The translations under genes and the position numbers were made by a program. From an uncultured Acidobacteriota bacterium (GTDB lineage: Bacteria; Acidobacteriota; Thermoanaerobaculia; Gp7-AA8): 64,000 bases of DNA. This document shows positions 6,929 to 57,474 of the stretch, one piece after another. Positions within the stretch are counted from its first letter, which is position 1. Each line of letters opens with the position of its first letter. The notes beneath the pieces are model-generated. The model saw nothing but the letters and a program-made list of their open reading frames with translations. It was not told the origin of the DNA and ran no database searches. The stretch covers positions 96,001 to 160,000 of the forward strand of contig CAVUKB010000001.1 of NCBI GenBank assembly GCA_963741955.1, in the 5' to 3' direction.

Positions 6929-6997
6929 CATCTGATATCTGGTATCTGGTATCTGATATCTGATATCTGGTATCGGGTAACTGATATCTGGTATCGG
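6929..6997. repeat. Heptamer tandem array (TATCTGG/TATCTGA)
   Basis: About 9-10 imperfect 7-mers immediately after the stop at 6925. Confidence 0.9.
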
Positions 6998-7151
6998 GGT
7001 CATCGTCGAGCCGACTCGCCGTGAGAGCCTGAATCGCAGCTCCGACTGATGCAGAATCCGGAGCGGATGGAGAGTATGATCCAGCGGTTTGAAGTTTCAC
7101 TCGTCCGTACTGCTTAAACGTACACGAATCACATCACGCGTAATATCACCA

Positions 7152-7208
7152 CATAAGATAACAGATAACAGATAACAGATAATAGATAATAGATAATAGA
7201 TAATAGAT
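7152..7208. repeat. Heptamer tandem array (AGATAAC/AGATAAT)
   Basis: About 8 units running directly into ATG 7209. Confidence 0.9.
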
Positions 7209-7976
7209 ATGAAAATCTATCGCTACGAACACAAGGGTCACATCTTCTGGGGAAAGGGTCAGGGCGAGTCGGTCACGCCGGTGGGCGCAGGGTCGGCCGC
7301 GGAGGTACCCACTGCCGTTCCGGCCGGAGATCCGCTCTCCCTCTCCTCGGTCCGCATACTCAACCCCGTCGTTCCCACCAAGATCGTGGCCGTCGGCCGC
7401 AACTACGCGGAGCATGCGAAAGAGCTCGGAAACGAAGCTCCTCCTGAACCGATCCTCTTTCTCAAGCCGCCCTCGTCGCTCAATGATCCGGGCGGCCGCA
7501 TCGAGATGCCGCCGCAGTCCTCGCGGGTCGATTACGAAGGCGAGCTGGCGGTGGCGATCGGCAGGCGGGCCCGCCGGGTGCGCGCCTCCGAGTGGCGTCA
7601 GTACGTGCTCGGGTTCTCCTGCGCGAACGACGTCACCGCGCGGGACCTCCAGAAGAAGGACGTACAGTTCACCCGCGGGAAGAGCTTCGACACGTTCTGT
7701 CCGATCGGACCGTGTATCGAGACCGATCTCGATCCTGCAGATCTCGCGCTCACCACCAGAGTGAATGGTGAGATCCGCCAGGACAGTCGCACCTCCCGGA
7801 TGATCTTCGGCGTTCCGTTTCTTCTCGAGTTCATCAGTGGAGTGATGACGCTCGAGCCGGGAGACGTGATTCTCACCGGAACGCCGGCGGGAGTCGGGCC
7901 GGTCGCCGACGGCGACGTGATCGAGGTGGAGATCGAAGGGATCGGAGTGCTGAGGAACCCGGTCGGCGCGCGCTGA
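7209..7976 (+). CDS. Fumarylacetoacetate hydrolase family protein
   Basis: KIVAVGRNYAEH, DYEGELAV, NDVTARD, GKSFDTF and GDVILTGTPAGV motifs. Confidence 0.92.
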   Translation: MKIYRYEHKGHIFWGKGQGESVTPVGAGSAAEVPTAVPAGDPLSLSSVRILNPVVPTKIVAVGRNYAEHAKELGNEAPPEPILFLKPPSSLNDPGGRIEMPPQSSRVDYEGELAVAIGRRARRVRASEWRQYVLGFSCANDVTARDLQKKDVQFTRGKSFDTFCPIGPCIETDLDPADLALTTRVNGEIRQDSRTSRMIFGVPFLLEFISGVMTLEPGDVILTGTPAGVGPVADGDVIEVEIEGIGVLRNPVGAR

Positions 7977-17231: not shown

Positions 17232-18170
17232 ATGAGAAGACACGAGATCGCATTCGTCTTCCCCGGGCAGGGGAGTCAGTTCGCAGGGATGGGGAAAGAC
17301 GTCGCCGAACGGTACGAAGAAGCGGCGGCGGTGTTCCGGTCGGTCGACGAAGAGCTCGGGTTCGAGCTCTCGAAACTCTGTTTCGAAGGCCCTGACGATG
17401 CGTTGCGACTGACGGAGAACACGCAGCCGGCCATTCTCACCGTCTCCTCCGCCATTCTCGCGGTGATCCGCAACCGTACCTCTCTCTCTCCCGACATCGT
17501 CGCAGGACACTCGCTCGGCGAATACAGCGCGATCGTCGCCGCCGGAGGCCTGCAGCCACACGAAGCGGCGGCGATCGTCCGCCAGCGCGGGCGATTCATG
17601 CAGGAAGCGGTGCCGGTCGGCGCCGGCGCGATGGCGGCGATCATCGGACCCTCTCTCGACGAGATCCAGTCGATCTGTGACGAGGCGGCCGAAGGCGACG
17701 TCGTCTCTCCGGCGAACGTCAACGCGCCCGGACAGATCGTCATCGCCGGATCGAAGGCGGCCGTCGATCGAGCCATCGCGGTCGCGAAGTCCCGCGGTGT
17801 TCGGCGCGCTCTTCCCCTTCCGGTCTCCGCGCCATTCCATTGCGCGCTGATGAAGCCGGCGGAGGAGCGCCTCCAGCCCGTGCTCGAGCGCGCTCCATTC
17901 CGCGACCTCTCGGTGCCGCTCGTCTCGAACGTCGATGCCAGTCCGATCGGAACCGATCATGCCGTCCGGAACGCGCTGATCCGTCAGGTCGTCTCCCCGG
18001 TCCGCTGGGTGGCTACGATCGAGAAGATGATCGAGATGGGCGTGAAGAAGTTCATCGAGATCGGCCCCGGAAACGTCCTCACCGGTCTGATCAAGCGGAT
18101 CAGTCCGGAGGCGGAGCTGGTCAACGTCAGCGATGTCAAAGGGATCGAAGATCTGATATCGGGTGTCTGA
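17232..18170 (+). CDS. fabD: Malonyl-CoA-ACP transacylase
   Basis: FPGQGSQ, GHSLGEY and SAPFH motifs. Confidence 0.96.
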   Translation: MRRHEIAFVFPGQGSQFAGMGKDVAERYEEAAAVFRSVDEELGFELSKLCFEGPDDALRLTENTQPAILTVSSAILAVIRNRTSLSPDIVAGHSLGEYSAIVAAGGLQPHEAAAIVRQRGRFMQEAVPVGAGAMAAIIGPSLDEIQSICDEAAEGDVVSPANVNAPGQIVIAGSKAAVDRAIAVAKSRGVRRALPLPVSAPFHCALMKPAEERLQPVLERAPFRDLSVPLVSNVDASPIGTDHAVRNALIRQVVSPVRWVATIEKMIEMGVKKFIEIGPGNVLTGLIKRISPEAELVNVSDVKGIEDLISGV

Positions 18171-18173
18171 TTC

Positions 18174-18534
18174 GGGGGTCAGGGGTCAGGGGTCAGGGCG
18201 TATGGGGGTCAGGGGCACAGACTTGAGGAGCGAAGTGATGCGACCGCGCCCGACGAATGCAGAATGCAGAGTTCAGAATTGAGAATTCAGAGTTCAGGCG
18301 CCACCGGCGGCCGATGGCCATCTTTGAGCCAACGAATGGCGAGGGCGAATTCGAAAATCGTCGTCGCGCCCCGAAGGGCAACGGCCGGAGTTTCGCAGCA
18401 GAATGAGTGAAGGGAAGGTCTCCTTTCTCAACTCTGAATTCTGCATTTTGCATTCTGCATTCGCCGTGGACGACCCGATTCGCACGGCGGTGCAGTCACG
18501 AGAAAGCCAGAGTTTGTGCTATGGGGGTCAGGGG
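18174..18534. repeat. Composite repeat: GGGGTCA run, 15-bp direct repeats, inverted heptamer arrays
   Basis: TATGGGGGTCAGGGG at 18201-18215 and 18520-18534; AGAATGC-type array 18254-18297 and its complement 18427-18463. Confidence 0.8.
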
Positions 18535-18594
18535 ATACGTCCGAGTCTTTGAGGCTCGAAGCTTCCGGACACCTGTATCCTGCAATTCGGAGGA

Positions 18595-19341
18595 ATGATG
18601 AAGATCGATCTCTCGGGAAAGAACGCACTCGTGACCGGAGCTTCACGTGGAATCGGAGAAGGGATTGCGCGGCGTCTCGGTGAGACGGGAGCGACGGTGC
18701 TCTGCGCTGCGCGCAAGCGCGAGAGTGTCGAACGGATCGCCGGTGAGATCGAGAGCGGAGGTGGGAAGGCGATTCCGGTCGCCCTCGACATCACCGCGCC
18801 CGATCTCCGGGAACGGGTGAAAGAGATTCTGGAGCAGCACGAGCGCATCGACATCCTGGTGAACAACGCCGGAATCACCGAAGACGATCTATTCATCCGG
18901 ATGAAACCGGAGGCGTGGGACTCGGTGATGCGGACGAATCTCGATTCGATCTTCCATCTGACCCAGGAAGTGGTGAAGAAGATGATCCGTGCACGATGGG
19001 GACGGGTGATCAACATCTCCTCTGTGGTCGGGCTGATGGGCAACGTGGGTCAGGTGAATTACGCGGCATCGAAGGCGGGGATCATCGGCTTCACCAAGGC
19101 GCTCGCGCTCGAGATCGGATCGCGCAACGTCACCGTCAATGCCGTCGCCCCGGGGTACATCGCGACGGCGATGACGGACGCGATGACGGACGAGGCGAAG
19201 GCACGGCTCGAGGAGCGCATCGCTCTGCGGCGTCTCGGCAGCGTCGATGACGTCGCATGGTCGGTCGCGTTCCTCGCCTCGGAGGAAGCAGGCTACATCA
19301 CCGGGACCGTGCTCAACGTCAGTGGCGGTCTTTACACCTGA
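18595..19341 (+). CDS. fabG: 3-oxoacyl-ACP reductase
   Basis: TGASRGIG, NNAGIT and NYAASKAG motifs; follows fabD. Confidence 0.95.
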   Translation: MMKIDLSGKNALVTGASRGIGEGIARRLGETGATVLCAARKRESVERIAGEIESGGGKAIPVALDITAPDLRERVKEILEQHERIDILVNNAGITEDDLFIRMKPEAWDSVMRTNLDSIFHLTQEVVKKMIRARWGRVINISSVVGLMGNVGQVNYAASKAGIIGFTKALALEIGSRNVTVNAVAPGYIATAMTDAMTDEAKARLEERIALRRLGSVDDVAWSVAFLASEEAGYITGTVLNVSGGLYT

Positions 19342-21378: not shown

Positions 21379-21951
21379 ATGCCGCAAGGAGAAGAGACGC
21401 ACGGACACGTTCCACCGATGGAATCGAGCGAAGAGGCGAGCTCGAAACAACTCACCTATGCCCGCAGACAGGGCGACACACTCCAGGATGCGATCGACGC
21501 GATGCTGAAGATGGATCGCCACAGCCAGGAGCGACGTGCGGGCGAGTTCCTGGTCAGCTGCGTGGTCGAGGATGCCGAGGGGATGTGGGTTCCCCGAGAC
21601 GACGGAGCACTCGAATGGGAGGAGCCCGACGAGCAGAATCTCCACGTCGAAGTCCTCGTTCGTGATGGTGCGGACCGCCGCTTCATTCCCGGCCTCCGCG
21701 TCACCCTCACCCTCATCGGCCCGGATGGCAACGAGATCGGAACTCACGAGCAGCCGTTTCTCTGGCACCCATGGCTGTTTCATTACGGGCGGAACTGGAA
21801 AGTTCCGGGAGACGGCGAGTACCGCGCCCGCATCCATATCGACGCTCCCTCCTTCGCGCGGCACGACCACAGGAACGGCAAACGCTATGCGCGGCCGGTG
21901 GACGTCGAGCTCGGACCGATCCACGTCGAGACCGGGAGGAAGGCATCGTAG
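21379..21951 (+). CDS. Iron-transport (P19/Tp34-like) domain protein
   Basis: HVEV..RFIPGL and HYGRNW..PGDGEY motifs; AAAGGAG RBS; no signal peptide seen. Confidence 0.7.
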   Translation: MPQGEETHGHVPPMESSEEASSKQLTYARRQGDTLQDAIDAMLKMDRHSQERRAGEFLVSCVVEDAEGMWVPRDDGALEWEEPDEQNLHVEVLVRDGADRRFIPGLRVTLTLIGPDGNEIGTHEQPFLWHPWLFHYGRNWKVPGDGEYRARIHIDAPSFARHDHRNGKRYARPVDVELGPIHVETGRKAS

Positions 21952-22116
21952 ATCGAGGACCTGAGAGACATCTGAGATCGAGGATCGAGGATCTGAAAGA
22001 CATCGAGGATCTGAGATCGAGGATCGAGGATCTGAAAGACATCGAGGATCTGAGATCGAGGATCGAGGATCTGAAAGGCATCGAGGATCTGAAAGGCATT
22101 CGACATCGAGGATCGG
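21951..22116. repeat. GATC-rich tandem repeat (three 39-bp units built from GAGGATC heptamers)
   Basis: TCTGAGATCGAGGATCGAGGATCTGAAAGACATCGAGGA at 21971, 22010 and 22049. Confidence 0.9.
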
Positions 22117-22248
22117 AGGAGTCCCGAGGAGTGAGAGGGGACCTGTTCGGGCGGGACGGCAGTCCGCCCGCGGAGTCTGGTGGAATCTTTCCCCTTTCCG
22201 GACGTTGTAGCCGCCGTCGGCCGGACCGAACGAACGTCTCGCGGATGG

Positions 22249-22276
22249 TCGACAGAGGCGACACGATCTGTATAAT
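22249..22276 (+). promoter_or_regulatory. Probable tRNA-Thr promoter
   Basis: TCGACA-16 nt-TATAAT followed by a GC-rich discriminator. Confidence 0.55.
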
Positions 22277-22312
22277 GTCGCGCGGCTCCGGGCTGGAGCC
22301 GTTACGCAGTCC

Positions 22313-22388
22313 GCCGTTGTAGCTCAGTCGGTAGAGCAGCTGATTCGTAATCAGCAGGTCAGCGGTTCAAGTCCGCTCAACGGCTCCA
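22313..22388 (+). tRNA. tRNA-Thr (anticodon CGT)
   Basis: GCCGTTG...CAACGGC-TCCA; anticodon arm GCTGA-TTCGTAA-TCAGC. Confidence 0.95.
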
Positions 22389-22615
22389 CTACGACATTCT
22401 CCGAGCCACTGGCAACAGTGGCTCGTCTCGTTTCTGATCCCGGCCCACCGCCGGTCCCGCTTCCGGATCCATCGATTCTCCGTGACGCGCCCTTTCCCGT
22501 TGCTTTCCGAGCCTCGATCCCCGAGCCCCGAGCCTCGATCCCCGAGAAATGCGGGCTGGCATTTCCGGCAGAGCTCTCGCATCTTGTCCAGAGGACATCC
22601 TGACGGAGGGAAAGT

Positions 22616-25430: not shown

Positions 25431-26582
25431 TCACCGGATCGTTGTCGTTGCGCGATGCCGCTCGGAACCTTCGTGGATCCCTTTCTTCCGGTCCCTCAGG
25501 AATCCGCCGTCACGATCGGAGAAGACGGCCCGGATCTCGGCCACGATGGAGACTGCGATCTCTTCCGGTCCGTCGGCGCCGAGGTCCAGTCCCACCGGCG
25601 CGTGAAGACGCTCGAGAAACGAAGGGGAGGGACGTGCGCCTCTTGTGACCGCCTCTGCCAGAAGCCGCTCGCTCCTTCGTTTCGGACCGAGTATGCCGGT
25701 GTATCCCGGCTCGTGCGAGATGAGCTCACAGAGCGTCGAGACGTCGTCTTCGAACCGGTGAGTCATGACCACGACCGCGGTGCGGCGATCGATCTTCACC
25801 GGCAGCGGTCCATCACCGACCAGCACGACTTCGTCCGCCATCGGGAAACGTTCCGGGCTCGCGAATGCGGGACGCCGGTCGGCCACCACGACTTTCCATC
25901 CCAACGAGATGGCGATGCGGGCCAGAGGCGCCGCGTCGGCGCCTCCCCCGAAGATGACCAGAGCGGGACGCGGCTCGAGCACTTCCAGGAGCACGTCCGC
26001 CGAACCGCCGGTGACATCGAAATGTTCGACGTGCGAACAGCCGACGCACATCCACTCGCGGAGTGCGCTTCGAACGGCTCCGCCGAGCTCCGGCGGCTCG
26101 ATCACTCCCGCCGGGTCGGATCCCTCGCGAAGATGAATCCGTCCCCCCAATGCAGCACACGCCGCTCCGGTCGTGCGGAACACGGTCGCACTCGCGGCCG
26201 GGATGCGGCTGATCAGCGCGTCCTGGAGGAATGCGAGATGGGCCCGCACGTGAGGCGCCGCCGAGTCTTCGAGGAGGATCTCCAGCGATCCGCCGCAGCC
26301 GAGGCCGAGTCCCCAGAGGAGATCGGCGGCGTCGGAGGAGTCGTAGCGGACCACGTGCGGCGTGCCGCTCGCCACGACGCGTTGTGCATGAGCGAGAAGA
26401 TCGCTGTCCATGCAGCCGCCGCTGATCATGCCGTGGAATTCACCGTCGAGCGTGACGAGCATGCGTGCTCCGGGACGACGGTAGCTGGATCCTTCGGTTC
26501 CCACGACAGTCGCGAGAACGAACTTCCGGTTTTCGTTCTCGAGCCGTTGAAACGTGCGCGCGAGAGAGATCAGGTCACTCAT
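25431..26582 (-). CDS. XdhC/CoxI family molybdoenzyme accessory protein
   Basis: GSSYRRPGARM, ISGGC, GLGCGG and APVGLDLGADGPEEIA motifs. Confidence 0.9.
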   Translation of the reverse strand: MSDLISLARTFQRLENENRKFVLATVVGTEGSSYRRPGARMLVTLDGEFHGMISGGCMDSDLLAHAQRVVASGTPHVVRYDSSDAADLLWGLGLGCGGSLEILLEDSAAPHVRAHLAFLQDALISRIPAASATVFRTTGAACAALGGRIHLREGSDPAGVIEPPELGGAVRSALREWMCVGCSHVEHFDVTGGSADVLLEVLEPRPALVIFGGGADAAPLARIAISLGWKVVVADRRPAFASPERFPMADEVVLVGDGPLPVKIDRRTAVVVMTHRFEDDVSTLCELISHEPGYTGILGPKRRSERLLAEAVTRGARPSPSFLERLHAPVGLDLGADGPEEIAVSIVAEIRAVFSDRDGGFLRDRKKGIHEGSERHRATTTIR

Positions 26583-26736
26583 CGGGTCTCCGTCTCGAGG
26601 TCTCCGCGGCGGATGATGCGGCTCGCGGACGGGAGGATCTCGGGCAGAGAAATCATACACCCGGGAGGCGAGAGGCGAGAGAGAGTCGAATCCTCATTCG
26701 GATTCAAGAATCCAATCCTCGCCGCTCGCCGCTCGC

Positions 26737-27548
26737 CCTCGAGCCTCGAGAAAATGGGATCGTTCAATCGCCCCTACGGGGCTCTCCGATCGTGCTCTTC
26801 CGCGATCAATCCCAGGACTGCGTCCTGGGCTATTGTCAGACGCCCCTACGGGGCTCCCCGAGCCTCGAGCCCCGAGCCTCGAGCCTCGAGGAAATGGGAT
26901 CGTTCAATCGCCCCTACGGGGCTCTCCGATCGTGGTCTTCCGCGATCAATCCCAGGACTGCGTCCTGGGCTATTGTCAGACGCCCCTACGGGGCTCCCCG
27001 ACCCCCGATCCCCGATCCCCGAGCCTCGAGCCCCGAGCCTCGAGCCCCGAGCCTCGAGCCTCGAGAAAATGGGATCGTTCAATCGCCCCTACGGGGCTCT
27101 CCGATCGTGGTCTTCCGCGATCAATCCCAGGACTGCGTCCTGGGCTATTGTCAGACGCCCCTACGGGGCTCGCCGACCCCCGAGCCTCGAGCCTCGAGCC
27201 CCGAGCCTCGAGCCCCGAGCCTCGAGCCCCGAGCCTCGAGCCTCGAGCCTCGAGAAAATGGGATCGTTCAATCGCCCCTACGGGGCTCTCCGATGGTGCT
27301 CTTCCGCGATCAATCCCAGGACTGCGTCCTGGGCTATTGTCAGACGCCCCTACGGGGCTCCCCGATCCCCGATCCCCGAGCCTCGAGCCTCGAGCCTCGA
27401 GCCTCGAGCCTCGAGCCTCGAGAAAATGGGATCGTTCAATCGCCCCTACGGGGCTCTCCGATCGTGGTCTTCCGCGATCAATCCCAGGACTGCGTCCTGG
27501 GCTATTGTCAGACGCCCCTACGGGGCTCCCCGACCCCCGATCCCCGAG
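26737..27548. repeat. Array of five 105-bp palindromic units separated by variable heptamer strings
   Basis: Units start at 26751, 26891, 27066, 27255 and 27423; each has two GCCCC-TAC-GGGGC hairpins and one CCCAGGAC-TGC-GTCCTGGG hairpin. Confidence 0.95.
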
Positions 27549-27566
27549 TGATACCATCCCACGGCC

Positions 27567-28409
27567 ATGCGGTACGCTCTGATCCGATTTCTCAACGCCC
27601 GTCCGCTCTGGTGGGGACTGACTCACCGTCCGGGGCAGGACGACCAGCTTCGCTTCACGTCTCCCGCGCTCTGTGCCGACCTCGTCGCGGACGGCGCGGT
27701 CGACCTCGGGTTGATTCCGGCGATCGAGCTCGCCCGGATCCCCGACGTGGTCGCGGTTCCCTCGATCTGCATCGGTTCGAGAACGGAAGTCCGGAGCGTT
27801 CTTCTCGTCTCTCGCGTTCCGTTCGAAGAGATCCGCTCGGTCGCGCTCGATCCGAGCTCGCGAACGTCCGTCGCGCTCACCCGGATCCTTCTCGCGGAGA
27901 AGCTGGGAGAGGAGACCTACCGCACGATCCGTTTTGATCCGAGCGAGCGAGGGCGTCTCCTCGCTCTCGAGGGTCACGATGCGGCGGTGGTCATCGGCGA
28001 CCCGGCGTTGCAGATCTCGCGGGATCCCGGCCCGTCGATCCGTTTTCGCTACGACCTCGTGTCGGAGTGGAACGCGTTGTTCGGTGATCCCTTCGTTTTC
28101 GCCCTCTGGGCGGGGCGCCGCGACTCCCTGGAGCGATTTCTGGCGGAAGAGGTGCATGAACGGCTTCTGGCGAGCCGTGCGTTCGGAATCTCACAGGAAG
28201 AAGTCATCGCGCGCGAAGCGTCGGAGGAGCTCGCTCTTCCGTACGAAGAGCTGCTGGATTACTTCCGCTCCGCTCTGCATTACGAATTCGGCGAAGACGA
28301 GCGCCGCGCGCTTGCGCGTTTTTACGACCTCGCGGCAAAATACGCCCTCATCGAGGGGAGGAAGGAGATCGAATGGCTGTTCGATCCGAAGAAGTCGCAG
28401 ACATCCTGA
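27567..28409 (+). CDS. mqnA: Chorismate dehydratase (futalosine pathway)
   Basis: FLNARPL, VRSV, SRTSVAL, IGDPAL and PFVFALW motifs; next to mqnC. Confidence 0.9.
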   Translation: MRYALIRFLNARPLWWGLTHRPGQDDQLRFTSPALCADLVADGAVDLGLIPAIELARIPDVVAVPSICIGSRTEVRSVLLVSRVPFEEIRSVALDPSSRTSVALTRILLAEKLGEETYRTIRFDPSERGRLLALEGHDAAVVIGDPALQISRDPGPSIRFRYDLVSEWNALFGDPFVFALWAGRRDSLERFLAEEVHERLLASRAFGISQEEVIAREASEELALPYEELLDYFRSALHYEFGEDERRALARFYDLAAKYALIEGRKEIEWLFDPKKSQTS

Positions 28410-29507: not shown

Positions 29508-29666
29508 GTGGACGAGCGGCGAGTGGTGAGAGACGAGCGGTGAACGGCGAGTGGTGAGTGGCAACGGGAAGCTTCCTTTCCAGTAAACCGGGACCTTCCT
29601 TTACATCCGCTTCGGGCTTCGTCTCTCCTCCCCGACCCCTGGCCCCGAGCCTCGAGCCTCGAACCC
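29508..29666. repeat. Heptamer arrays (GGCGAGT/GGTGAGT type, then CCTCGAG type)
   Basis: Degenerate 7-mer runs at about 29508-29562 and 29630-29666. Confidence 0.65.
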
Positions 29667-29829: not shown

Positions 29830-30363
29830 ATGAGGACCTACGAAGTCCTGGTCATTCTCTCTCCGCGTATGACGGAAGAGGAGATCAACAGCACCATCTC
29901 CGATCTCAAGGGAATCGCCGAGAGCACGGGTGCCACGCTCGCCACCGAGGAAGCGTGGGGCCGTCGCCGACTGGCGTACCCGATCAACAAAGTACAGGAC
30001 GGGACCTACCACCTGTTCGTTTTCGAGAGTGAGCAGGAGCTCGCCGAGCTCGACCGGCGCATGAAGAACATGGAGTCGGTGATCCGGCACATGATCGTGC
30101 GGACGGATCTCGAGCAGCGCCGCGCCGTGAAGCTCGCCAAGAAGCGGAAGCCGCGCCGTCCGGCGCCGGGAACCGCGCCTGCGGAGACCGCGACGCCCGC
30201 GCCTGCGGAAACGGCGACGCCCGCGCCTGCGGAAACGGCGACGCCCGCGCCTGCGGAGACCGCGACGCCCGCGCCTGCGGAAACGGCGACGCCCGCGCCT
30301 GCGGCCACGCCTGACGAGGCGCCCGCCTCGAAGCCTGCCGCCCCCGAAGCGGCGGCGGAATAA
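29830..30363 (+). CDS. rpsF: 30S ribosomal protein S6 with repetitive C-terminal tail
   Basis: MRTYEVLVIL and WGRRRLAYPI motifs. Confidence 0.95.
   Translation: MRTYEVLVILSPRMTEEEINSTISDLKGIAESTGATLATEEAWGRRRLAYPINKVQDGTYHLFVFESEQELAELDRRMKNMESVIRHMIVRTDLEQRRAVKLAKKRKPRRPAPGTAPAETATPAPAETATPAPAETATPAPAETATPAPAETATPAPAATPDEAPASKPAAPEAAAE
30175..30304 (+). repeat. Coding 24-bp tandem repeat (APAETATP x5)
   Basis: GCGCCTGCGGARACSGCGACGCCC five times plus a partial copy. Confidence 0.92.
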
Positions 30364-37460: not shown

Positions 37461-37556
37461 CCCCGGGTTACGGCGCGGAGCGCCTTCACCCGGGGCAATT
37501 GTCAATCGCGCCTACGGCGCTGGAAGTTGCGCGAGTGGGAATGGGGGTCGCTTCGT
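37461..37556 (+). repeat. REP-like family C
   Basis: GGCGC-GGA-GCGCC and GCGCC-TAC-GGCGC hairpins; close match to 42686-42780. Confidence 0.8.
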
Positions 37557-42203: not shown

Positions 42204-42248
42204 GCGTGGGCCCGGCGTTGACGCGTGCCGTACGCCTCCAACGTCGCC

Positions 42249-42550
42249 CTGATCCATTCGAGCGTCATCACGTGCGACAGCGTCGCCTCCCACACCGCCT
42301 GCATCTGCTCGCCCTTGAAGAGAGCGCGATCGAAGTGTCACTGGGTCAGTGGATTATGAGAGAGAACCGACAGGCGAAGGCCTGACCCCCCCGTCGATCC
42401 TGATCCATTCGAGCGTCATCACGTGCGACAGCGTCGCCTCCCACACCGCCTGCATCTGCTCGCCCTTGAAGAGAGCGCGACCGAAGTGTCACTGGGTCAG
42501 TGGATTATGAGAGAGAACCGACAGGCGACGGCCTGACCCCCCCGTCGATC
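42249..42550. repeat. 151-bp tandem duplication
   Basis: 42249-42399 vs 42400-42550; two mismatches seen. Confidence 0.92.
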
Positions 42551-42685: not shown

Positions 42686-42780
42686 CCCCGGGTTCTGGCG
42701 CGGAGCGCCTTCACCCGGGCAATTGTCAATCGCGCCTACGGCGCCTGGAGTCGCGCGAGTGTGGGTGGAGGTCGCTTCGT
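42686..42780 (+). repeat. REP-like family C
   Basis: Close match to 37461-37556. Confidence 0.8.
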
Positions 42781-57231: not shown

Positions 57232-57474
57232 ATGGCAACGAAGGCAAAGAAAGCAGCAAAGAGACCCGCGAAGAAGGCAGCGAAGAAGCCTGCCGCCAAG
57301 AAGGCCGCGAAGAAGACTGCACGGAAGCCAGCTGCGAAGAAGGCTGCGAAGCGCCCTGCCAAGAAGGCCGCGAAGAAGACCGCGCGGAAGCCAGCTGCAA
57401 AGAAGGCTGCAAAGCGCCCCGCAAAGAAGTCCGCTGCGAAACGATCCTCGAAGAAGACCGCTGCCAAGAAGTAA
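57232..57474 (+). CDS. Histone H1-like Lys/Ala-rich protein (80 aa)
   Basis: AAAGGAG RBS; repeated KKAAKRPAKKAAKK; AT-rich promoter region; terminator follows. Confidence 0.85.
   Translation: MATKAKKAAKRPAKKAAKKPAAKKAAKKTARKPAAKKAAKRPAKKAAKKTARKPAAKKAAKRPAKKSAAKRSSKKTAAKK

Follow-up and report, generated by a model that had tools for sequence, protein, structure and literature searches.

Five tandem copies of the Acido-Lenti-1 hairpin repeat joined by seven-base microsatellites in the genome of an uncultured Acidobacteriota bacterium

A 64,000-nt stretch of DNA of an uncultured Acidobacteriota bacterium (Thermoanaerobaculia, Gp7-AA8; assembly GCA_963741955.1, contig CAVUKB010000001.1, positions 96,001 to 160,000; hereafter, the window) contains an array in which five long structured units alternate with strings of related heptamers. 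The initial annotation, made from the sequence alone, compared the array with clustered regularly interspaced short palindromic repeats (CRISPR) and offered several explanations for it, including a mosaic resembling repetitive extragenic palindromes (REPs) or bacterial interspersed mosaic elements (BIMEs). The question is what the repeated unit is and how the ordered heptamers between its copies could have arisen. The array is five tandem copies of a known and widespread hairpin repeat, Acido-Lenti-1 (Rfam family RF01687), with ordinary microsatellites of period 7 between them; its appropriate annotation is Acido-Lenti-1 repeats plus a microsatellite, not a CRISPR-like novelty. We consider it, with a probability of about 0.6, to be a REP/BIME-like repeat that was amplified locally within microsatellite DNA. 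It would be mostly a by-product of repeat dynamics and may affect the two promoters beside it.

Layout of the array and identity of its unit

A repeat search, the Tandem Repeats Finder (TRF) program, and direct parsing all revealed five units of 105 nt (26751–27527), which carry substitutions at only 3 of 105 positions (1, 41, and 45; Table 1). The sole substitution that breaks a stem is located at position 41, in hairpin C of unit 4. According to the repeat search, the start-to-start periods between consecutive units are 140, 175, 189, and 168 nt; TRF describes the array by a period of 175 with a score of 1160. The spacers consist of nothing but heptamers, exactly 5, 10, 12, and 9 of them (35–84 nt). 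Each spacer starts with CCCCGAC, CCCCGAT, or CCCCGAG (once CGCCGAC) and ends with at least two CCTCGAG. An array of this kind cannot be produced by chance. In the near-identity of the units, the four periods, the numbers of heptamers, and the polarity of the strings with their terminal CCTCGAG, the initial annotation was borne out.

It was also pointed out there that all the periods are multiples of 7. This is arithmetically correct but is not a signal: the unit is 15 × 7 nt in length, and since its self-similarity at lag 7 (0.23) is equal to that at other lags, the multiples of 7 are merely a 1-in-7 coincidence. The absence of a lag-7 signal inside the unit also led to rejection of the suggestion that the unit itself is made of heptamers. 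As for the secondary structure, four local stem-loops (B1, C, A, and B2) were counted per unit instead of the three described previously; B1 and B2 are the same hairpin. A long-range helix between B1 and B2, predicted by folding of a single sequence, was rejected, because the B1 and B2 stems differ in relatives.

The 3′-terminal 45 nt of each unit match RF01687 with 47.1 bits, the gathering score being 37, over model positions 1–46; all five matches thus belong to the family by covariance-model score over the whole model. The units carry both hairpins, the GGCUA-type junction, the 12-nt linker, and the terminal CU of Acido-Lenti-1. A covariance model built here from an alignment of 112 family copies (R1) gave 64.7 bits for the array units and indicated a second, partial match at the unit’s 5′ end (17.7 bits; model positions 25–45, i.e., the linker and hairpin B), which in unit 1 occupies positions 26762–26782. 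An alignment of the unit with two Thermoanaerobaculia loci, L041 and L066, revealed a common order of TCAATCG, B1, about 25 nt, hairpin A, the linker, and B2. Given this shared order and the second match at the 5′ end, the 105-nt unit consists of a truncated motif copy (the linker and B1), then an additional hairpin (C), and finally the complete motif.

When the array is compared with the published Acido-Lenti-1 (RF01687, PMC2864571), the likeness includes the full-model scores, the two hairpins, and the linker, and the Acidobacteriota-like host fits as well. The differences are that the Rfam model extends over no more than 45 nt of the 105-nt unit, that the array and its relatives add a partial or full second copy upstream, and that none of 77 other loci showed, among the matches listed, five direct copies with microsatellite linkers.

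Two diverged single copies bring the number of family copies in the window to seven (Table 1). In both of them, a nested hairpin is inserted into hairpin A, and about 120 nt of mutual homology extends beyond the motif; from their sequences, they appear to be a second sub-family in the source genome. The copy at 37462–37521 has no adjoining heptamers. About 140 nt upstream of the other copy, there is a 151-nt tandem duplication (42248–42550; 2.0 copies, 98% identical).

Behaviour of the family in other genomes

The family was sampled by a pattern scan of genome contigs, which yielded at least 126 loci and is a sample rather than a census. The pattern fixed a part of the motif and some of the stem bases; copies included in the alignment needed at least seven of the eight hairpin A pairs, and 77 loci formed the basis for counting copy clusters. 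Most of the sampled loci are from Acidobacteriota; Planctomycetota, Verrucomicrobiota, metagenome-assembled genomes labelled Chlamydiota, Thermoanaerobaculia, and further groups are also represented. A tblastn search of the window’s open reading frames (ORFs) against these loci gave 42% identity for the closest match. The 5′ arm of hairpin A, which was not specified by the pattern, is present in 135 of 142 distinct copies, and the matches are therefore genuine family members.

In the alignment of 112 sequences, 98.6% of stem cells are paired. The number of double-sided changes is 176, as against 50.7 in shuffled alignments (none of the 500 shuffles reached 176); four stem pairs show 33–56 double changes each, and the signal is lost when the stem partners are slid. 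Across the members of this pattern-selected sample, the 8-bp hairpin, the linker of about 12 nt, and the 5-bp hairpin are kept by compensatory changes. An upstream B-type hairpin accompanies 106 of the 142 copies, and its distance to hairpin A peaks at 20–22 nt (55/142).

The copies tend to be clustered. The R1 search found two or more of them in 39 of the 77 loci among the matches listed. Adjacent pairs no more than 300 nt apart (n = 51) are divergent, with the CTA-tagged ends outward, in 26 cases, direct in 19, and convergent in 6. Fifteen of the 19 direct pairs are tight dimers with gaps of 19–21 nt, and the head-to-head inverted pairs have centres of 22–60 nt. The alternation of orientation at regular spacing that characterises REP/BIME repeats is thus seen in the family, but not in the array, all units of which are direct. 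The identity of copies within an assembly is 0.928 (57 pairs) versus 0.726 between assemblies (6048 pairs), and the largest number of distinct copies from a single assembly is at least eight among the matches listed.

To describe the gene context, greedy ORFs were called at the loci and counted only when confirmed by Pfam. For 26 single-copy loci with both neighbours confirmed, the genes are convergent in 12 cases, tandem in 12 (six sense and six antisense), and divergent in two; by our own arithmetic, the binomial p value for 12 convergent versus 2 divergent is about 0.013. Pfam matches were obtained for 99 of the 146 flanking ORFs scanned; these are housekeeping genes. Among the 146 ORFs, there is no recurrent neighbour family, and the Pfam search detected no reverse transcriptase; three DDE transposases, one site-specific recombinase, and one truncated insertion sequence (IS) fragment of the IS200-like type were found. 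The latter, in locus L070, is the only match to Y1 transposases among these ORFs, and it was considered as a link to REP-associated tyrosine transposases (RAYTs). The link was rejected: the fragment scores 35 bits, whereas the NCBIfam cut-off is 55, and it is flanked by the repeat on one side only. It should be noted that a RAYT is a single-copy gene and that the search covered the flanks and the window alone. The adjacency to RAYT or reverse transcriptase genes raised in the initial annotation comes down to this one sub-threshold fragment in the family flanks, neither reverse transcriptase nor Y1 having been found in the window.

REPs, including the GTAG-tagged REP superfamily, BIMEs, and REPINs are dispersed extragenic palindromes (PMC3733652, PMC2817692, PMC3337134). 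The features described for them are largely repeated here: the palindrome is short, extragenic, and present in several copies in a genome (PMC3733652), its dimers are head-to-head, tail-to-tail, or head-to-tail and 20–100 bp apart, and clusters are reiterated in tandem together with flanking DNA. A preference for the 3′ ends of genes, homogeneity within a genome, and an unpaired tag of the TAG type after hairpin A, on the opposite strand, complete the likeness. On the other hand, the family unit is a fixed module of two hairpins, whereas a REP is a single palindrome, and the family sequence is conserved across phyla, unlike those of classical REPs. Nor is the GTAG/CGTC tag of REPs present as such: at the tag position, the 112 copies have CTAA (49), CTAC (22), CTAT (21), CTAG (8), or CTG- (12), so that only TAG is conserved, and in the window the opposite strand reads ATAG. 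Since the full GTAG tag is rare and no RAYT was found, the family is likened to REP/BIME in its behaviour but is not filed as a REP member. With this proviso, the mosaic of the BIME/REP type suggested initially fits a dispersed, multi-copy palindromic family with direct dimers and inverted pairs in many genomes. A limited literature search found no description of Acido-Lenti-1 as REP-like.

The array can also be understood as a battery of five paralogous Acido-Lenti-1 small RNA (sRNA) genes, each unit giving one transcript and the copy number setting the dose. Tandem arrays of sRNA genes exist in other bacteria. The strong covariation and the preservation of the motif sequence across phyla are in line with this explanation. 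RF01687 is typed as Gene; sRNA in Rfam, and its seed includes two same-strand copies 200 nt apart on one Lentisphaerae contig. In the part of Weinberg et al. 2010 (PMC2864571) that deals with the motif, described there from Acidobacteria and Lentisphaerae, it was rated on covariation as probably an RNA, neither cis-regulatory nor a riboswitch; a 2026 preprint (10.64898/2026.10.21.760802) still calls its function unknown. However, a simple scan of both strands of positions 26400–27750 found no sigma-70-like promoter, in the units or between them, no terminator is visible within the units, and none of the five has a T-tail behind hairpin B2. Head-to-head pairs with centres of 22–60 nt are too tight to accommodate promoters, and between tandem genes the sense and antisense orientations are equally frequent. 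The stems do not show the excess of G·U over A·C: the numbers are 13 and 7 in the primary, pattern-selected copies and 3 and 14 in the other, secondary copies, which means that there is no strand bias. Homogenisation within genomes and the preference for convergent genes also resemble REPs. The sRNA battery is therefore a possible explanation but a rather doubtful one, and the units are probably not five independent sRNA genes. The idea that the locus is a source of small structured RNAs agrees with the Rfam label of the motif; neither a promoter nor a terminator is visible in the units. An intrinsic terminator was rejected separately: at least five T within 9 nt after B2 occur in only 21 of 143 family copies and in 0/5 array units.

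Dimers, inverted pairs, within-genome homogenisation, the 3′-end preference, and the lack of strand bias thus point to a repeat. In other words, the genomic behaviour of an abundant Rfam family resembles that of REP/BIME-type repeats rather than that of a classical sRNA gene, and this changes which experiments on Acido-Lenti-1 make sense. If the units of the array are active, they probably work as extragenic hairpins, formed in the DNA or in the transcript of either strand; they could be a structural or protective element or a selfish repeat.

Several other features of the sampled loci can be noted. Acidobacteriaceae copies (L003, L008, L032, L040, L044, L079, L080, and others) share a conserved 3′ extension ending with GTTCTCACGCAGACTCTAAAGCCC, 10–45 nt after B2, beyond which the flanks diverge; the repeat in Acidobacteriaceae is therefore longer than the Rfam motif. 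In locus L010, a 21-nt (3 × 7) tandem repeat ending with CGGGGCT follows hairpin B2 immediately (283–340), and this is a further case in which the motif’s 3′ end has seeded a tandem repeat. A separate dispersed repeat starting with GTCATCC(T/C)GAG is located near the motif in L070 (2846 and 3271), L041 (about 2880 and 2925), and L066 (about 2868).

Heptamer tracts and the origin of the array

Heptamers are not special to this locus, contrary to what the initial annotation implied; tracts of the same family and other period-7 tracts occur in many intergenic regions of the window. TRF detected 13 period-7 tracts outside the array, including tracts of CCCCGAG, CCTCGAG, and CCTCGAT without the unit at 22507–22546 and 29642–29662. 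Among perfect tracts with at least three copies and periods of 5–15, six have period 7, two have period 14, and none have other periods; no such tracts arose in 20 first-order Markov simulations of the window. The tracts are therefore intergenic, head-to-tail 7-nt copies above the level expected by chance, as in heptameric simple sequence repeats (SSRs). Judging from the window, this Thermoanaerobaculia-like genome has an unusual wealth of heptamer tracts, which are often arranged as complementary pairs bracketing intergenic segments, and this genome could serve as a model for why 7-nt repeats dominate bacterial microsatellites. In the loci from other genomes, 7 is also the commonest short period (20/56). 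A linkage between heptamers and the motif in those genomes was rejected, because a motif is present within 150 nt of only 1 of the 20 period-7 tracts.

Heptameric SSRs are an over-represented class of long SSRs in many bacteria; they are intergenic, sometimes form inverted pairs, vary in length between close relatives, and are ascribed to polymerase slippage (PMC4692102, PMC4679880). Examples given there are GGGNATC in Xanthomonas and Nostoc (PMC4692102), TAACTGA in Beggiatoaceae and cyanobacteria (PMC4679880), and the Calothrix heptanucleotides cited in the same sources. The tracts of the array are similarly intergenic and are mixtures of related variants, and CCCCGAT is the reverse complement of a GGGGATC-type unit. 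They differ from SSRs in alternating with a structured 105-nt unit, which makes a higher-order repeat, and in the self-complementary nature of CCTCGAG. A limited literature search found no description of heptamer tracts in Acidobacteriota.

We propose the following origin of the array. A single unit would initially have been located between (CCTCGAG)n on the left and CCCCGAC CCCCGAT CCCCGAG on the right. The two flanks are similar, and their slipped or unequal recombination could then have duplicated the unit together with a flank, so that every internal spacer would be a right flank joined to a left flank. Replication slippage would have subsequently lengthened the junction 14-mer (CCCCGAG CCTCGAG) and the CCTCGAG run to differing lengths. 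The observed spacers match a right flank plus a left flank string by string, with only the number of the junction 14-mers or of CCTCGAG varying. The polarity of the spacers can be explained by the fact that tandem duplication joins the right flank to the left one. Given the near-identity of the units, the amplification, or their homogenisation by gene conversion, would have been recent. Slippage, one of the two mechanisms suggested initially for the tracts, is accepted for such heptamers in the papers cited above. The other, unit-wise enzymatic addition, finds no support: duplication and slippage suffice to produce the ordered strings, a heptamer-adding enzyme is not needed, and the window encodes none.

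The same applies to the assumption of a CRISPR-like or enzymatically written record, in which a dedicated enzyme would add heptamers one at a time in a fixed polarity. The ordered polarity of heptamer types within each spacer is the only observation that speaks for it, and flank joining plus slippage accounts for this polarity fully. Heptamer tracts of unrelated sequence are common elsewhere in the window and in genomes without the unit, in addition to their rarity near the motif in other genomes. Pfam searches of the 62 ORF translations of the window, some of them with strict E-value limits, found no Cas, reverse transcriptase, Y1, or other transposase families; the absence of cas genes was noted correctly at the outset. 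With CRISPR, the array has only its outline in common, namely structured repeats alternating with DNA of variable length. CRISPR repeats are about 23–55 nt long, whereas those of the array have 105 nt, and its spacers are low-complexity microsatellites related to one another. The CRISPR analogy was rejected for these reasons, and the written record is extremely improbable.

A related and highly speculative reading, which we regard as very improbable, is that Acido-Lenti-1 is the REP equivalent of Acidobacteriota and the Planctomycetes–Verrucomicrobia–Chlamydiae group and that the templated action of a conserved single-stranded DNA enzyme leaves polar heptamer strings as footprints, the array being a record of such events. 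The strings at the 3′ ends of the elements, with old heptamer variants next to the unit and derived variants distally, would then reflect repeated action of this enzyme instead of passive slippage.

It is also conceivable, though very unlikely, that a shorter repeat locus was misassembled and that the copy number and the numbers of heptamers are artefacts. Units with at least 97% identity together with microsatellites are difficult for short-read assembly. Nevertheless, no two spacers are the same, and all of them keep the phase and are consistent within themselves; three substitutions distinguish the units; and the 513,416-base length of the contig listed for the identical MqnA points to a contiguous assembly.

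A number of facts weigh against local amplification of a REP/BIME-like repeat, which we nevertheless prefer. The array is located between divergent genes, the rarest context of the family (2/26). Its five-fold direct arrangement is atypical, four or more direct copies being present in 0/77 other loci among the matches listed. Neither a RAYT nor any other mobilising enzyme could be linked to the family among the window ORFs and the 146 flanking ORFs, and CTAC, corresponding to the GTAG tag of classical REPs, was counted in no more than 22 of 112 copies. REPs are not usually conserved in sequence across phyla, and the fact that this family is would be in line with a functional RNA, as would the classification of the motif in Rfam and, on covariation, in the passage of Weinberg et al. 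2010 (PMC2864571) referred to above. Finally, the history of duplication plus slippage is derived from one sequence of one strain, and the family counts, coming from a pattern-selected sample, are lower bounds.

Flanking genes, promoters, and other repeats of the window

The array lies between divergent xdhC-like and mqnA–mqnC genes, as the initial annotation had it and Pfam confirmed (Table 1). The real start of the xdhC-like gene is probably the ATG near 26583. The mqnC gene, with radical SAM and CofH_C domains identified by Pfam, is located beyond mqnA on the plus strand. The nearest named relatives of MqnA are Thermoanaerobaculia proteins (68% identity), and the nearest relative overall has 73% identity. 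The last heptamer indeed abuts the mqnA box TGATACCAT, which ends 9 nt before the ATG. Such a position suggests that the mqnA mRNA may be leaderless or nearly so, although the box was not called by the simple promoter scan.

Table 1. Coordinates of the array, its flanking features, and the other family copies in the window.
Feature	Position	Strand	Basis or remark
xdhC-like gene	25431–26660	−	Pfam XdhC_CoxI PF02625 and XdhC_C PF13478; divergent from the array
Inverted pair of other heptamer tracts (GAGGCGA, CTCGCCG) around a small hairpin	26665–26741	.	TRF and sequence; left of the array
Left flank of the array, 2 × CCTCGAG	26737–26750	+	Sequence
Unit 1, 105 nt	26751–26855	+	Acido-Lenti-1 motif at 26811–26855; order: motif remnant with hairpin B1, hairpin C, full motif
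Spacer 1, 5 heptamers (CCCCGAG and CCTCGAG)	26856–26890	+	Parsing; TRF periods 7 and 14
Unit 2	26891–26995	+	Rfam motif 26951–26995
Spacer 2, 10 heptamers, first CCCCGAC CCCCGAT CCCCGAT	26996–27065	+	
Unit 3	27066–27170	+	Rfam motif 27126–27170
Elements within the unit (given for unit 3)	B1 20–32, C 38–57, A 61–79, linker 80–91, B2 92–104 of the unit		
Spacer 3, 12 heptamers, first CGCCGAC	27171–27254	+	
Unit 4	27255–27359	+	Rfam motif 27315–27359
Spacer 4, 9 heptamers (2 CCCCGAT, 1 CCCCGAG, 6 CCTCGAG)	27360–27422	+	
Unit 5	27423–27527	+	Rfam motif 27483–27527
Right flank of the array, CCCCGAC CCCCGAT CCCCGAG	27528–27548	+	
TGATACCAT, extended −10-like box	27549–27557	+	Abuts the right-flank heptamers
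mqnA, chorismate dehydratase family	27567–28409	+	Pfam PF02621, alignment starting at residue 2
Diverged single family copy	37462–37521	+	R1 27.6 bits, E = 1e-4; alignment
Second diverged single copy	42687–42745	+	R1 24.7 bits; homologous to the copy at 37462

The contact of the last tract with this −10-like box raises the possibility of a contingency or regulatory locus, in which changes in tract length, or structures formed by the tracts (cruciform, G-quadruplex, or i-motif), would tune the promoters of the divergent xdhC and mqnA genes. The tracts are self-complementary, since CCTCGAG contains the self-complementary CTCGAG; 22 of the window’s 79 CTCGAG sites are inside the array. Accordingly, each spacer of the array folds on itself, spacer 2 via CUCGAG, and the folding of the array tracts is strong (z = −5.7). 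On the minus strand of 26996–27020 and 27528–27548, the reverse complements of CCCCGAC, CCCCGAT, and CCCCGAG supply at least four runs of GGGG with 3 nt between them; the units are of the GGGNATC type, which in Xanthomonas and Nostoc was studied for G-quadruplex formation (PMC4692102). Judging from the letters, the runs beside the mqnA −10 box may have the potential to form a G-quadruplex or an i-motif. However, changes in the internal spacers leave the spacing inside either promoter unaltered, and similar tracts in many unrelated intergenic regions argue for a genome-wide mutational cause. A contingency locus is thus unlikely, and the effect of the array on the mqnA and xdhC promoters is most likely modulating at most, which is compatible with its being a by-product of amplification.

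Other interpretations of the array region were also considered and rejected. ORFs such as 25455–27551 cross the array, but a coding repeat is inconsistent with periods of 140 and 175, which are not multiples of 3; this ORF is spurious, as it also overlaps xdhC on the opposite strand. A replication origin with iterons was rejected, there being no GC-skew switch near 27 kb, and so was a plasmid or phage origin, since the unit had no blastn match in the plasmid or phage collection.

Repeats outside the array are diverse. Tracts of ATCTGRT (9.4 copies) and AGATAAY (7.7 copies) form a pair around about 160 nt at 6930–7209, the second tract ending 2 nt before the ATG at 7211. The fabD (17232–18167) and fabG (18553–19338) genes are separated by a 385-nt spacer (18152–18540), in which a stem of about 27 bp, made of GAATKCA and TGCATTC tracts, encloses 135 nt; on either side, there are GGGGTCA tracts together with a direct TATGGGGGTCAGGGG repeat. 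This spacer looks like a foldback-type insertion. In the region 21951–22546, partly complementary tracts (GATCGAG/GATCTGA and CCGAGCC/TCGATCC) flank the tRNA gene at 22313–22385; the second tract is followed by GAGAAATGCGGG, which is similar to the start of the array unit. Repeats of in-frame length were found as well: 24-nt units at 30173–30304, in the 3′ part of the rpsF ORF (29830–30363), and, at 57244–57434, 12/63-nt units in which AAG and GCN codons abound.

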